Assembly: GCF_030013205.1 (NCBI RefSeq)
Contig: NZ_CP122649.1
Length of the DNA stretch: 64,000 bases
From: Escherichia coli
GTDB taxonomy: Bacteria > Pseudomonadota > Gammaproteobacteria > Enterobacterales > Enterobacteriaceae
Strand: one strand, 5' to 3'
This document shows, piece after piece, positions 3,001-9,000 of the stretch (positions within the stretch are counted from its first letter, which is position 1; the number at the start of each line of letters is the position of its first letter). The position numbers were made by a program.

Positions 3001-6000
3001 GGTTCTGTGGGGAGGAAACGGCCAGAACAGCAGACCGATACGATGGGCGGGCGCTATTTTGTATCCAGAATTCGTGCCTTTTCTTCCCGCGTCGCCAGTC
3101 GGGCACTTCCGGAACGGTCGCGGATCAGCAGTGGCTTTTCCTTTTTCCAACCAGTGATAGCCGTTTCCCCGAAACGACGCGGTGCATTGCCATTCCAGCT
3201 GGCAATCACGTGATTATCGTGTACTTCCTTGATGACGACAGAATGAAGAGTCACCGTCTTAATGGTGGTGTTTCCCATTTTGGTCCGGGAGAGTGACCAG
3301 ACGGTCATCCCCACCTCCAGCTGACTGAGTTTCATCTTTACTCCGGTAATATCGGGATACATCATTAAACGACGTGGAGACGTAGGTTAGCATAAGCACT
3401 CACAGCGGATACTGCCGCCAGATAACAGGGTGAGGTATCCGCCATGAGCAGTCTTTACGGCTGGCGTTATTCGGCCAGGGCGCGGGTAATAGACGCACGC
3501 TGACGCTGGCGCTCAGCCTTACGCTGGCTGCGGCGATATAGCGGCTTCGCGGCAGCGTAGCGACAATCTTCCGGGTGGTACCAGCAACAGCCGCAGGGCT
3601 CAGGCTGGGGTTTTCCGGCAAGTCCGAATGGTTTCATAATGTCACCTTTTAAATGGAATAATGTTCAGGTCCCGTCCATCAGGCCACGGGTTCATTAATG
3701 AAGCGGCGTTGCATAAACAGGTACAGATAACCCTCTGGCGAGAACATACAAAGATTCTCGGTAATACAGGCATCGAGGTACTTCGTGTCGCCAAGGAGTC
3801 GCTTAATGACAGCCAGCTGGTTAGCCGCAGACTGAATCAGCGGATAGCCATTCACGGCACGATGAATACCTGAGTGGAATAACGAACGAGCCTTTCCAAT
3901 CTTTTCCCGGGTTGCGTCCATTTCCATATCGATAACAGACTGACGCGCAACATTAATAGCATTGCCGGATAACTCCGCGAAGCTAACCAGAGGCTTATTC
4001 ATAAAAAACTCCTTCCAGGTATGTGAGCTTATTATATCAATACGGACTTTGCCCCAAACAACCCGACTCGAAATATTTTGGAAATTACTCTAATAACTAA
4101 AAATGGCACCCGGAAAATAGAATGAATTTATTTTAAGCTTGCCGAACATGGCTGGCGGCGGAATTAAATTTGGGTAATGACTCCAACTTATTGATAGTGT
4201 TTTATGTTCAGATAATGCCCGATGACTTTGTCATGCAGCTCCACCGATTTTGAGAACGACAGCGACTTCCGTCCCAGCCGTGCCAGGTGCTGCCTCAGAT
4301 TCAGGTTATGCCGCTCAATTCGCTGCGTATATCGCTTGCTGATTACGTGCAGCTTTCCCTTCAGGCGGGATTCATACAGCGGCCAGCCATCCGTCATCCA
4401 TATCACCACGTCAAAGGGTGACAGCAGGCTCATAAGACGCCCCAGCGTCGCCATCGTGCGTTCACCGAATACGTGCGCAACAACCGTCTTCCGGAGCCTG
4501 TCATACGCGTAAAACAGCCAGCGCTGGCGCGATTTAGCGCAGACGATGACGTCACTGCCCGGCTGTATGCGCGAGGTTACCGACTGCGGCCTGAGTTTTT
4601 TAAATGGCGGAAAATCGTGTTGAGGCCAACGCCCATAATGCGGGCGGTTGCCCGGCATCCAACGCCATTCATGGCCATATCAATGATTTTCTGGTGCGTA
4701 CCGGGTTGAGAAGCGGTGTAAGTGAACTGCAGTTGCCATGTTTTACGGCAGTGAGAGCAGAGATAGCGCTGATGTCCGGCGGTGCTTTTGCCGTTACGCA
4801 CCACCCCGTCAGTAGCTGAACAGGAGGGACAGCTGATAGAAACAGAAGCCACTGGAGCACCTCAAAAACACCATCATACACTAAATCAGTAAGTTGGCAG
4901 CATCACCGAAAATAAAATAGAGAGAGTTTTCAATCCGCATGACTTTAAAAAAGACAATTTTTAGAAATAAGCCGGATAAAAAAATAGCTTTATCCGGCAC
5001 TCATATTACAACCAGTTCTTCCGCTTAAAGTACAGATACGGTGCCAGGCCCGCGAGGATCATAAAGATAATCGCGGCAGGGTAGCCGAACCTCCACTTCA
5101 GTTCTGGCATAAACTCAAAGTTCATGCCATAGCTGGAAGCAACGAGCGTCGGCGGCAGGAATACCACGGATACCACCGAGAAGATTTTGATGATGCGGTT
5201 CTGCTCGATGTTGATAAAACCCATTGCCGCCTGCATCAGGAAGTTCACCTTCTGGAACAGGGATTCGTTATGCGGCAGCAGGGATTCGATATCTCGCAGG
5301 ATTTCACGCGCCTGCTCCAGTTGCCCACCCGGTAAACGCGCTTTACGCACCAGGAAGTTGAGCGCGCGCTGGGTATCCATCAGACACAGGCGAACTTTCC
5401 AGCCGATATCTTCCAGTTCCGCCAGAGTGGAGAGCGCCTCGTCGTACTCATCGCCCTGATGCCCTTCCATAATCACCCGGCTCAACTGCTCCAGGTCGCT
5501 ATAGATATTTTCAATTTCATCTGCCAACTGTTCGATTTTGGTTTCGAACAGATCCAGCAGCAACTCGTAGGCGTTACCGTCTACCATCGACTGGCTACGG
5601 GCACGCATACGATACAGACGAAAAGCGGGCAGTTCACGCTCACGCAGAGTAAACAGACGACCATCACGGATGGTAAATGCCACAGTGGAGTTACCGGCGT
5701 GATCTTCCGCATCTTCAAAGAAGAAGAAGGAGTGAATATGCAGGCCGTCGTCGTCTTCAAAGAAACGTGCCGATGCTTCGATGTCTTCCAGTTCCGGGCG
5801 GGTTGCCAGGCTCTGGCCAAGTTCAGATTGTAAGCGCAGTCGCTCGTCGTCGTCCGGTTCGACAAGATCAATCCATACTGCATTTACAAGGGGTTGTGAC
5901 TCTTCGACTTCCAGCCGGGTCAGTCGGTTATTTTCCAGTTGAAATGCGCTCAGCATGACCGGGACTCCCAATGCTTAAAATATCGGACAGTTCGGTGGGC

Positions 6001-9000
6001 ACACAGAAACAAATTGGGTTTCAGACCATTAAACAGCCTGACTCAGCGCGACGGGAAAAATTGAGGTCGCTGACAACCGCTAAGGCTATCAGCAAAAAGG
6101 GATAGCCTTAGGAGTTGATCCTGGATGACAGGATAGTGAGCCAGTATCTACTGGGTGTGTCCAAGGCGAATGTCCTCTTAGAGTGATCGTGCGCGCATGT
6201 TACGCCAGCAAAATTTTGCCGTCAACACGCAACAGAACACCACAGAACAATAGTTGAACTTCGCGCTTTTTGGTACTCGTCAAGGTCGCTAACAGGATAA
6301 AAAAATCCCACATCCAGGACCTATAATGGCGCATCAGCTACTCATTGGTAAAGGAATGATCACCTTGAATCTCAAACGGATTTTTCTCGCCCTCACCTTA
6401 CTTCCCTTGTTTGCTGTTGCCGCTGATGATTGCGCACTCTCAGATCCGACGCTGACCGTACAGGCGTATACCGTTAATCCTCAAACAGAGCGGGTGAAAA
6501 TGTACTGGCAAAAAGCCAATGGCGAAGCGTGGGGAACGTTACATGCTCTGCTGGCGGATATTAATAGTCAGGGTCAGGTGCAGATGGCGATGAACGGCGG
6601 CATCTTAAATTTGACGGTTTTTGATATAAAATATAGAAAGAAGGAGGTTTTCTGAATACCTCCTTCACTGGCGCTCAGTTCGAGAATACGTTAACGCTGT
6701 ACCGTTTACCGAGCACCTCGGCAGTGGTATCGACAATTTTCTGAATATCATCGGCAATCGCGGGTTTTACTGAATGCGACGGTGTGCAGTTCACCAGCCT
6801 GTTCCGCCGTCGCACCATCATGAAAGCGGCTGGCATCGTAAAGCTGGACCCGGAGTGTCCGGGTATAATCGACATGGCCCATTATTCCTCTCCTGTTCAG
6901 TCAGGCGCTATACGCGTTAATAATCACTTTCTTCCGGTTGCGGCTGGGTGACAAACTGGTACTTCACCCCATTAGGGACGCCAACGGCTTTTGCTACAGA
7001 TTCACACAGCAGCGACAGGTCATTCAGAGTCATCGGATATTCGATATCGACGGAATATAAGGCCCCGGCGTTCTCGGCCTCTTCGATATTTTTATACTGG
7101 GCACTGAAAATGGCTATGGTAGAGATTTCAAGGTTATGCATGAGTCAGTCCTTGTTAATAAAAAAGAAGCCACCGTAAGGTGGCTGAATAAAGGTTACTG
7201 GACCTGGCTGGCCTTTTTTTCCGCGTTCTTGTTGTAATCAACGCGGGCAATAACGACGGCAGCGGCCAGGAGTGCAGCGAGACCGCCGTAGAATACTGGT
7301 CGGGAGATATCGACGAACATATCGCTCAGGTTATCAACGCCGAGGAGAAATACGCAGATAATGACGATAAAGCGAACAGGTTTGCTGTAGAACAATTTCA
7401 TCAGGAGCTATCCTTCTGGGGTGAAATGACACCAGCATTACACCATATCAGATGCCAATTTTTTTTCGGTAACGGGCCTATTTTGACAAGAAAAAAGACA
7501 CATCAGGGAGGCAATGACGAGAGTATTTTCGAGGTGCCTATGGCCTGTCACTTCCTGAACTCAGGAAAAGAACGATGCTGTAGAACACAATCGAAATATA
7601 GAAAAGTAACTTTTCCACCGACGATATGTCCGGCGGCAAGTTATTCTTATGCAGGGCACAAATCAGTGAATTGGGTTCCGCGCGGGAAAGTCAAAAAAAC
7701 TTGCATGTCGTTCCGGATGCCAGGCGACGTAGCACATAGATTTGGGCCTGTGTAAGCGGGGAGCTGGGACGTTTTGTGTCTGCCATAATGTTCCTTTTAT
7801 AACGAGGGCTGTCCGGCTGACAGATTAGCGGACAGACCTGAAAATAACGTGCATATCCAGCACCTGGCTGAATCCCTGAGCGAGGCAAATGCCTTTACTC
7901 TTCCCCCTCCGACAACAACAAAAATGCGTTGAGCTTCCTCTTCGGCCTGTTCATCAGTCATGCTTTTCTCGCGGATGTGCGAAGTAAACAGGCTCCAGTT
8001 TGCAGCGATAAAATCACGTACTTGATGCATTTCCGAATTCTCAGCGTCAATAACCATTTTTAGTGTCCTGTGTCTTAAATAAGGTCCGCCCTGTTAATAG
8101 ATCAGGGACGGACTGTTTAAGCGAGATAGCCAGCCTGTGCCGTGGTTATCCATTCACCAGAGTGATTTTTGTGGGGGATACTTTGATACTAAAAGCATTA
8201 AATTTCTTTTTAAGAGCGAGTTCAAACCACGCCACCGGGATAGAGACCGAACTATCATCGCCGCCCAATGCCTCCTCTGCCTCGTCATACCATTCATCAT
8301 CAACAGACGGATTCATCCCACGGGCATAGACAACCGTATCACGGGAAACAGGGGTTCCATCCAGAGATGCATTGGTAATCAGATAGACGCCATGATCTTT
8401 TACCAGAAGGATCTGTGGAGTCAGGCGGGCCGGGTCAATGTGTTTGGATGATGGCCAGAAAATTCCCCCCGTCTGGTTCATTTCCACTTCTGTTTTGCCC
8501 TCTTCGTTGAGAGGAGTACCGCCGGGGTAATTTGACGGTTCAAAAAGCTGTTCAATGGTTGCATTGAACCGTTCCGCCGAGCGGAGTTCTTCGAGGAGCT
8601 TTTTTACCCCAGCAATTTCGAATGTTAATGTGGTCATAAACTTATTCTCCATCCGTAGTCAGCATCAGATATCGGGTGGCCAGTAGCAACTCTTTGACGT
8701 CAGCAGTTGAAACCTCCCCTTTGCCTTCTACCGCGTCCTGCAAACGCTGACGCGTCGCCTGAATCGTCTCTGACGACAGTGACGCCAGTTTGCTCAATAC
8801 AGCGTTAGCTTTTTCCACAGCGGGATACAGGGACTCTGAGGTGGTATTGTCTACATCGTTATCGAAAAACAGGTCAGACTCCATATTAATATTGTCTTCG
8901 AGCCAGCTGGTAAGAATATCAAGTAAAGACATAACTTTATTAATCTGCATTTTTCTCGCCCTCGGTTGATGTAATTCAAATATAACAAACTGTCTCGTCT

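Follow-up and report, generated by a model that had tools for sequence, protein, structure and literature searches.

The window analysed here, a stretch of 64,000 nucleotides from Escherichia coli (RefSeq assembly GCF_030013205.1, contig NZ_CP122649.1), carries side by side a shortened copy of the insertion sequence (IS) IS1 and a copy of corA, the gene of the host's main magnesium/cobalt channel. The block that contains both, at 4164-6613, is very probably the immobilised remnant of a 3,242-bp IS1 compound transposon, which entered an IncHI1 plasmid backbone, lost one of its two IS1 copies and was then left with a deletion in the transposase of the other. While the element itself decayed, its cargo persisted, and the CorA that it encodes differs from that of the host by a single residue.

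The ends of the block provide the first line of evidence. The 9-mer TTAAATTTG is found at 4164-4172, abutting the outer end of the IS1, and again at 6605-6613, where it starts at the exact base at which identity to E. coli chromosomes ends. In relatives lacking the block, the site is empty and holds this 9-mer once, as in one plasmid reading GGCGGCGGAA-TTAAATTTG-ACGGTTTTTG, the right flank beginning with ACGG. A query was reconstructed from the left flank, one 9-mer and the right flank, and a match was required as one piece; the uninterrupted site was recovered in at least 213 IncHI1 plasmids from PLSDB. As the 9-mer stands at both ends of the block and as a single copy in the empty site, it represents a target-site duplication which brackets the whole IS1, corA and truncated yigE (yigE') unit, the arrangement of a compound transposon. 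The insertion site is intergenic and AT-rich and belongs to the IncHI1 backbone. An earlier note on this DNA had remarked that no 9-bp duplication surrounds the IS1 alone, and this holds, the flanks being TTAAATTTG on the outer side and GAAAATAAA on the inner side. These flanks do not match because the structure is compound and the inner IS1 end abuts the cargo; the duplication seemed to be missing because the second IS1 was lost later. No second IS1 end was found anywhere in the 64-kb window.

Between the IS1 and the right copy of the duplication lies a captured chromosomal segment of 1,697 bp (4908-6604), which contains the corA terminator, corA, the ysgD leader, the corA/yigE intergenic region and 93 codons of yigE. 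Alignment to E. coli chromosomes, proposed in the earlier note as a way to define the junctions, gave 99.9% identity over this segment, the match stopping at 6605; the native chromosomal order is yigF, corA, ysgD, yigE, uvrD. The proposal that IS1 had mediated a transfer of host chromosome into the plasmid is thus upheld as to the source, which is E. coli DNA, and as to its transport by IS1, but not as a one-off capture by a single IS1, since the vehicle is a widespread compound transposon.

This transposon has been retained intact elsewhere. Two IS1 copies, of which the window has one, flank the passenger in relatives L002-L004, L006, L008 and L024-L026 of the loci compared. The complete element, 3,242 bp long, has the order IS1-corA-ysgD-yigE'-IS1, with the IS1 copies inverted and their right inverted repeats (IRR) pointing outward. 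At the yigE' side it reads GGCATC-TATGATGAA followed by IS1 and the duplication, and it includes 8-9 more native yigE bases (TATGATGAA) than the window. The two-IS1 core is hosted by IncR, IncHI2 and IncC plasmids and by E. coli chromosomes at non-native sites, and a search of 5,426 complete E. coli genomes recovered the yigE'-IS1 junction in 170. Perfect 9-bp duplications have been preserved at three unrelated sites, namely GCCGACGGC on an IncHI2 plasmid, GGTGAGTTA on an E. coli chromosome and CAAATTTAA on IncHI1 plasmids; other copies lack matching flanks, presumably owing to rearrangement after insertion. In the IncHI1 plasmids pSD134209-1 and CP077527.1, the intact element occupies the same backbone position as the block in the window and is flanked on both sides by CAAATTTAA, the reverse complement of TTAAATTTG.

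At this IncHI1 site, three forms of the element are represented in PLSDB: the intact element (1 record), an R27-type form with one IS1 and the orientation of the intact element (27 records), and the window-type form, whose single IS1 has a 33-bp deletion and whose orientation is opposite (13 records). The block is common to 41 IncHI1 plasmids of this database, R27 and pHCM1 included. The earlier note had considered that the corA segment might belong to a longer conserved plasmid region; the block does recur across these plasmids, but as a discrete insertion absent from the relatives (at least 213) that have the empty site. Over positions 3600-7200, the window matches NZ_CP122645.1, an IncHI1 plasmid of E. 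coli, at 100% identity, and pHCM1 from Salmonella Typhi CT18 at 99.9%, which places the finding in a well-known plasmid family.

Native yigE extends less far in the two one-IS1 forms than in the complete transposon, which indicates that these forms are derived. The R27-type junction reads GGCATC-T-AAATTTAA and that of the window GGCATC-T-TAAATTTG, and each type is 777 bp short of the intact element in the matching orientation. A single description fits the two losses: 8 bp of yigE, the IS1 itself (768 bp) and 1 bp of the duplication were removed, with one breakpoint 0-2 nt from the outer end of the IS1 and a second one past its inner end, by 7-9 nt. Microhomology at the junctions amounts to 1-2 nt, T or CT in the window and A in R27. 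In the window, the right copy of the duplication is therefore also the scar left by the second IS1 and TATGATGAA (777 bp). Since the two joints use different sides of the backbone, the losses in the window and R27 lineages were separate events. An additional stage is provided by a 303-kb plasmid (JBQQQW010000002.1, L036) having the orientation and junctions of the window together with a full-length 768-bp IS1, which places the 33-bp deletion after the loss of the second IS1. A further junction scan retrieved one more R27-type junction in metagenome contigs and none in GTDB genomes, and no junction of a new type in either.

The surviving IS1 derivative spans 735 bp (4173-4907, minus strand) and, as the earlier note had described, has intact terminal repeats: its termini are identical to those of the R27 IS1, with imperfect inverted repeats beginning GGTGATGCTGCC and GGTAATGACTCC. 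Following the ISfinder convention, position 4173 is taken to be the IRR, at the outer end, and position 4907 the left inverted repeat (IRL), at the inner end adjoining corA, so that the IS1 genes are read on the minus strand. Alignment to the 768-bp R27 IS1 showed that exactly 33 bp are missing, besides a few substitutions, in agreement with the in-frame insB deletion of about 33 bp that had been noticed from the sequence; the possibility, raised at the same time, that the copy would prove full-length once aligned is thereby set aside. The deletion junction (4536|4537) shows a 2-bp GC microhomology. Whereas insA is intact (4577-4852, minus strand, 91 codons, GTG start), the insB' frame (4188-4658, minus strand) has 156 codons instead of the 167 of the full-length gene. 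The A6C motif for -1 frameshifting is present at IS1 position 307, and the fused InsAB' frame is open for 221 residues versus 232, residues 106-116 (AEMDEQWGYVG) having been removed. As the Pfam domain DDE_Tnp_IS1 covers residues 102-232 of full-length InsAB', its positions 5-15 are gone from the window protein. Short of 11 residues in its catalytic domain, this copy is probably a non-autonomous IS1 derivative. The lost MDEQW resembles the first-Asp motif of other DDE transposases, from which we infer that the catalytic residue D109 has been lost.

The R27 IS1 (L001, 1509-2276 of the locus) contains a TGG to TAG nonsense mutation (W163* in InsAB'), and the R27 one-IS1 remnant is likewise predicted to be transposase-defective, by a lesion other than that of the window. 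Taken together, the nonsense codon and the 33-bp deletion imply that both old lineages ended with a defective IS1. In another R27-type plasmid (NZ_CP024236.1, L007/L022), the remaining IS1 has been cut by an insertion of ISEc23, of the IS66 family, a further stage of decay. Ancestry could not be traced through IS1 single-nucleotide polymorphisms (SNPs), whose patterns were mosaic and uninformative, gene conversion among IS1 copies being the probable cause. A 161-bp query over the deletion junction was not discriminating either, two-piece matches to normal IS1 ranking level with the 33-bp-deleted IS1.

A history consistent with these forms would comprise five steps. Two IS1 copies would first have come to flank corA in an E. 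coli chromosome, after which the element would have transposed into the IncHI1 backbone, duplicating TTAAATTTG, a step recorded directly by the bracketing 9-mers. The central segment would then have taken the orientation opposite to that of R27, either by recombination between the inverted IS1 copies or by insertion in the other orientation; recombination between the inverted copies before the loss is the simplest account. The yigE'-side IS1 would next have been deleted with 9 bp (777 bp in total), joining yigE' directly to the duplication, as the comparison with the intact element makes visible. Finally, the 33-bp in-frame deletion would have removed residues 106-116 of the surviving transposase. 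As a result, corA would no longer be mobile as a transposon, and the IS1 would be mobile only with transposase supplied in trans by another IS1. An in situ inversion of the one-IS1 unit through the palindromic AAATTT core of the duplication was also considered and rejected, as it would create the junctions AAATTT-A-AGATGCC and CATTACC-C-AAATTT, which are not those of R27.

The mechanism by which the second IS1 was lost is placed with less confidence than the history itself. IS1 circles contain a spacer of 6-9 bp derived from one flank, and a reciprocal product would lack the IS1 together with about 9 bp. A transposase-associated abortive transposition, analogous to that proposed for ISApl1 and Tn6330, might have produced the 777-bp scars, and this mechanism is tentatively favored, with a confidence slightly short of even. 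In Tn6330, the loss of the flanking IS has been proposed to result from abortive copy-out transposition stimulated by IEE, which reportedly also stimulates IS1 excision (10.1101/2023.06.07.543989).

The best-surviving alternative accepts the same history but has the second IS1 removed by host illegitimate recombination or replication slippage, the likeness of the two 777-bp scars being a coincidence or an effect of local sequence. The microhomology of 1-2 nt at the junctions is compatible with such a process, long inverted repeats are known to stimulate deletions, and just two clearly independent events are available for comparison. Random deletions are nevertheless unlikely to track the IS ends so closely twice, and end-tracking deletions have been reported to be transposase-dependent for ISApl1 and IS30. 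Host-mediated slippage, although rather unlikely, is a serious alternative for this one step.

One-ended transposition is a quite improbable explanation. Here, the mobile unit would consist of the IS1 and the corA segment ending in GGCATCT, mobilised by IS1 transposase through the IRR and a surrogate end within yigE, and R27 and the window would have received it by independent insertions, each duplicating 8 bp. A unit ending at GGCATCT is indeed bracketed by exact 8-bp direct repeats, TAAATTTG in the window and TTAAATTT in R27 (given in the window orientation), which lie 1 bp apart, and IS1 occasionally makes 8-bp duplications. In addition, the inner sequence GATGCCGCC resembles positions 4-12 of the IRL (GATGCTGCC). 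By inspection, however, the sequence read inward from the junction (AGATGCCGCC) fits the IRL only after a 2-nt shift and without the terminal GGT. This model also requires that a plasmid of about 200 kb be hit three times independently within 1 bp, twice by one-ended units and once by the compound one. A plain IS1 at the exact site was not found, the lone IS1 copies of five relatives being about 70 bp off. PLSDB, metagenome contigs and GTDB genomes gave no one-IS1 unit that ends in GGCATCT and lies at some unrelated site between 8-9-bp repeats of its own. Moreover, the derived corA alleles of the S. Typhi one-IS1 plasmids (CGC at codon 289, 5039T and 5487A) are also those of the compound plasmid with the element at this site, an indication of descent in situ.

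Direct capture of corA by the present single IS1, through a cointegrate or an adjacent deletion and without any compound stage, would agree with the single IS1 and with the lack of a duplication around it, but is hardly credible given that a perfect 9-bp duplication brackets the whole block, that the empty site is known, that the identical block with identical end points recurs between two IS1 copies at many sites having duplications of their own, and that the intact element is present at the same IncHI1 site.

The decay of a compound transposon therefore accounts best for the block, and several points have to be weighed against it or its parts. The birthplace junction, with IS1 in native yigE and the rest of yigE beyond it, was found in none of the 5,426 complete E. 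coli genomes, and no IncHI1 plasmid with both IS1 copies in the window orientation was found, the inversion intermediate being deduced. Within the R27 orientation (orientation A), markers conflict: corA SNPs group the S. Typhi plasmids with pSD134209-1, and flank SNPs group R27 with pSD134209-1. Either repeated IS1 loss or plasmid recombination within this orientation may explain the conflict; the flanking backbone SNPs offer too few and discordant sites to decide on recurrence, and only two independent losses are claimed. The scars also deviate from those of Tn6330, since the deletions measure IS plus 9 bp here (777 vs 768) and the IS length there (1069.8 +/- 2.4 vs 1070), and since junction microhomology is 1-2 nt here and 2-4 nt as reported for Tn6330. 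Lastly, the parallel between the 777-bp scars and the spacers of IS1 circles is tentative, and D109 is a putative first catalytic Asp, assigned from the motif pattern.

The cargo appears to be a complete corA expression unit, encoding a CorA variant with Ser289 replaced by Arg (S289R). The gene is intact (5006-5956, minus strand, 316 codons plus stop), and the deduced protein of 316 residues differs from native E. coli CorA at this position only. Its identity as a CorA is attested by the PF01544 domain called on an identical protein, by the YGMNF and MPEL motifs and by two C-terminal transmembrane helices, and its alignment with Thermotoga maritima CorA is free of gaps across the motifs. At codon 289 (5090-5092, minus strand), the window has AGG (Arg) instead of the ancestral and native AGC (Ser). 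Seven of the 1,697 core positions are variable among ten copies, and two of these seven fall in codon 289; L013 and L040, which have indels, were left out of the SNP tables.

All 41 IncHI1-site copies in PLSDB differ from AGC at this codon, and all IncHI1-site copies examined encode Arg289 (L001, L008, L009 and L014-L039 among the loci noted). The codon is AGG in every window-type plasmid; R27 and two relatives have AGA, and pSD134209-1, CP077527.1 and the S. Typhi plasmids have CGC, each of the three being one base change away from AGC. Among the compound copies on other plasmids, AGC was present in all eight exact PLSDB matches, as it is at the native locus and in essentially all E. coli chromosomes. 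In the roughly 4,200 records matched in complete E. coli genomes, AGG was restricted to three IncHI1 plasmids, and AGA occurred in one IncHI1 plasmid and two chromosomes, one of which carries it in a transposon copy (L021), the other being NZ_AP045777.1. With this last chromosome left aside, no native-locus Arg289 was identified among complete E. coli genomes.

Ser289 is conserved in CorA of other Enterobacterales. The residue lies three positions after MPEL, in the loop forming the negatively charged ion entrance, and aligns with Lys324 of T. maritima CorA, so that Arg289 is likely compatible with a working channel. This pattern looks like convergent selection on the plasmid-borne copy. One may then ask whether the IncHI1 corA is no passive passenger but has been driven repeatedly, by at least two and perhaps three single-base changes, to Arg289 in the periplasmic loop at the channel mouth, and would act as a plasmid-borne modifier of the host channel; judged from alleles and alignments, this is a possibility that we consider more doubtful than probable. 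As CorA is a pentamer, the plasmid subunit could mix with host CorA and change the entry of Mg2+, Co2+ and Ni2+. The earlier note had suggested that an extra corA could alter Mg2+/Co2+ handling, and S289R would make such a functional consequence more plausible.

In larger collections, Arg289 was encountered at two native loci with the uvrD-yigE-corA context, in GCA_027672445.1 (L023, AGA) and in the metagenome scaffold ERZ28605171 (L030, AGG). Because Arg289 is so rare at the native locus, these are most simply explained by gene conversion from a plasmid copy, rare natural alleles being possible. A different kind of variation affects CorA residue 42 (window position 5833), where Leu and Val alternate within the AGA group, within the CGC group and among copies elsewhere, which suggests recombination with host corA alleles; Val occupies this position in the solved E. 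coli CorA domain (5n77).

The other features of the cargo also agree with the earlier description of a complete corA with promoter and terminator next to a divergent yigE-like reading frame of 109 codons. A terminator-like hairpin followed by a T run lies just downstream of the corA stop (4971-4998, minus strand), and a sigma-70 promoter-like site (TTGACG, 17 nt, TAACAT; 6197-6225, minus strand) precedes the corA leader, both as consensus matches. Upstream of corA, the 18-codon leader open reading frame ysgD (6108-6164, minus strand) is annotated at the equivalent position in relatives. The truncated yigE (6326-6655, plus strand) consists of 93 native codons (6326-6604) and 16 plasmid-derived ones, native YigE having 254 residues. 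An Rfam search of positions 3500-7500 returned no match.

Further copies of the element and its neighbors deserve mention. In GCA_050703595.1, the intact element is present both on the IncHI1 plasmid CP077527.1 (L025) and on the chromosome CP077526.1 (L026), where cytochrome bd genes lie on one side of it and a glycoside hydrolase family 38 gene on the other. On the chromosome, it is bracketed by a separate duplication (GGTGAGTTA) and has the same corA allele as the plasmid copy, which indicates a recent transposition. A variant 22 bp shorter at the corA-terminator end, in which IS1 abuts TTCAATCCG instead of GAAAATAAA, was observed at L013, L020 and L021; it resides on an IncC plasmid that carries blaNDM-7 and in a chromosomal island that has genes for TrbL and an integrase, and the L020 and L021 copies carry the AGA (Arg) allele. 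Five IncHI1 relatives (L011, L012 and three others) have a lone IS1 some 70 bp away from the position of the corA element, at the equivalent of window position 4100 or so and still within the AT-rich intergenic stretch. IS1 would thus seem to prefer this region, though not the same 9-mer, and an IS1 hotspot at TTAAATTTG itself was rejected as these copies use a different target. Finally, a 93.8-kb sequence deposited as a plasmid from a hen E. coli and typed as non-mobilizable (NZ_OY843411.1, L041) contains a long native stretch, pldA-yigI-rarD-yigG-yigF-corA-yigE-uvrD-yigB, and could represent either a piece of chromosome that was excised or amplified or an error of assembly.

Collectively, the process is the ordinary decay of a compound transposon, like that of Tn6330 and mcr-1, and it is already present in R27 and pHCM1. 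What the corA element adds is a clean natural series for IS1, parallel to mcr-1/Tn6330, all of whose stages can be found among public sequences, from the empty site and the complete transposon between its duplicated 9-mers to one-IS1 forms in both orientations, an intermediate with full-length IS1 and the crippled final form. The two 777-bp (IS1 plus 9 bp) scars provide a specific and testable prediction on how IS1 is lost. In addition, an IncHI1 resistance plasmid has acquired the magnesium channel of E. coli as a fixed part. Should the convergence on S289R be adaptive, plasmids of a family that is central to multidrug-resistant typhoid would provide their hosts with a tuned version of the main magnesium/cobalt channel.

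No name, Tn number or description for an IS1-corA transposon was found in the searchable literature, and the element is best understood by comparison with known systems. That some IncHI1 plasmids have corA and others lack it was recorded earlier in a preprint, purely as a trait of gene content (10.1101/334409); its origin in a compound transposon, the duplicated target, the opposite orientations, the scars of 777 bp and the alleles with S289R do not figure in that report. Within this plasmid family, the window block is 99.9-100% identical to the corA region of pHCM1 from S. Typhi CT18. As in Tn9-type transposons, IS1 copies flank a passenger, move with it as a unit and generate 9-bp duplications. 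In Tn9, the IS1 copies are direct repeats on either side of catA1, whereas the present element has them inverted, with IRR outward, around corA-ysgD-yigE'. One-ended units of the ISEcp1 or IS91 type similarly present a single IS and captured DNA bracketed by direct repeats, but the second boundary is here the deletion scar at the former second IS1 and not a surrogate end. The closest parallel is Tn6330 (ISApl1-mcr-1-pap2-ISApl1), for which loss of the flanking IS has been described, together with related backbones that have an empty site, the complete transposon or a single IS, and with deletions near the IS length (10.1101/2023.06.07.543989). Both are compound transposons with captured chromosomal DNA, known as empty, complete and one-IS forms, in which a deletion tracking the IS ends, if with an offset here, removes one IS and immobilises the cargo. 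They differ in that ISApl1 belongs to the IS30 family and duplicates 2 bp, in contrast to the 9 bp of IS1, in the constant offset of 9 bp on the IRL side, which is not described for Tn6330, and in that the surviving IS has here undergone a deletion in its transposase as well, while the cargo is a housekeeping Mg2+ channel and not a resistance gene.

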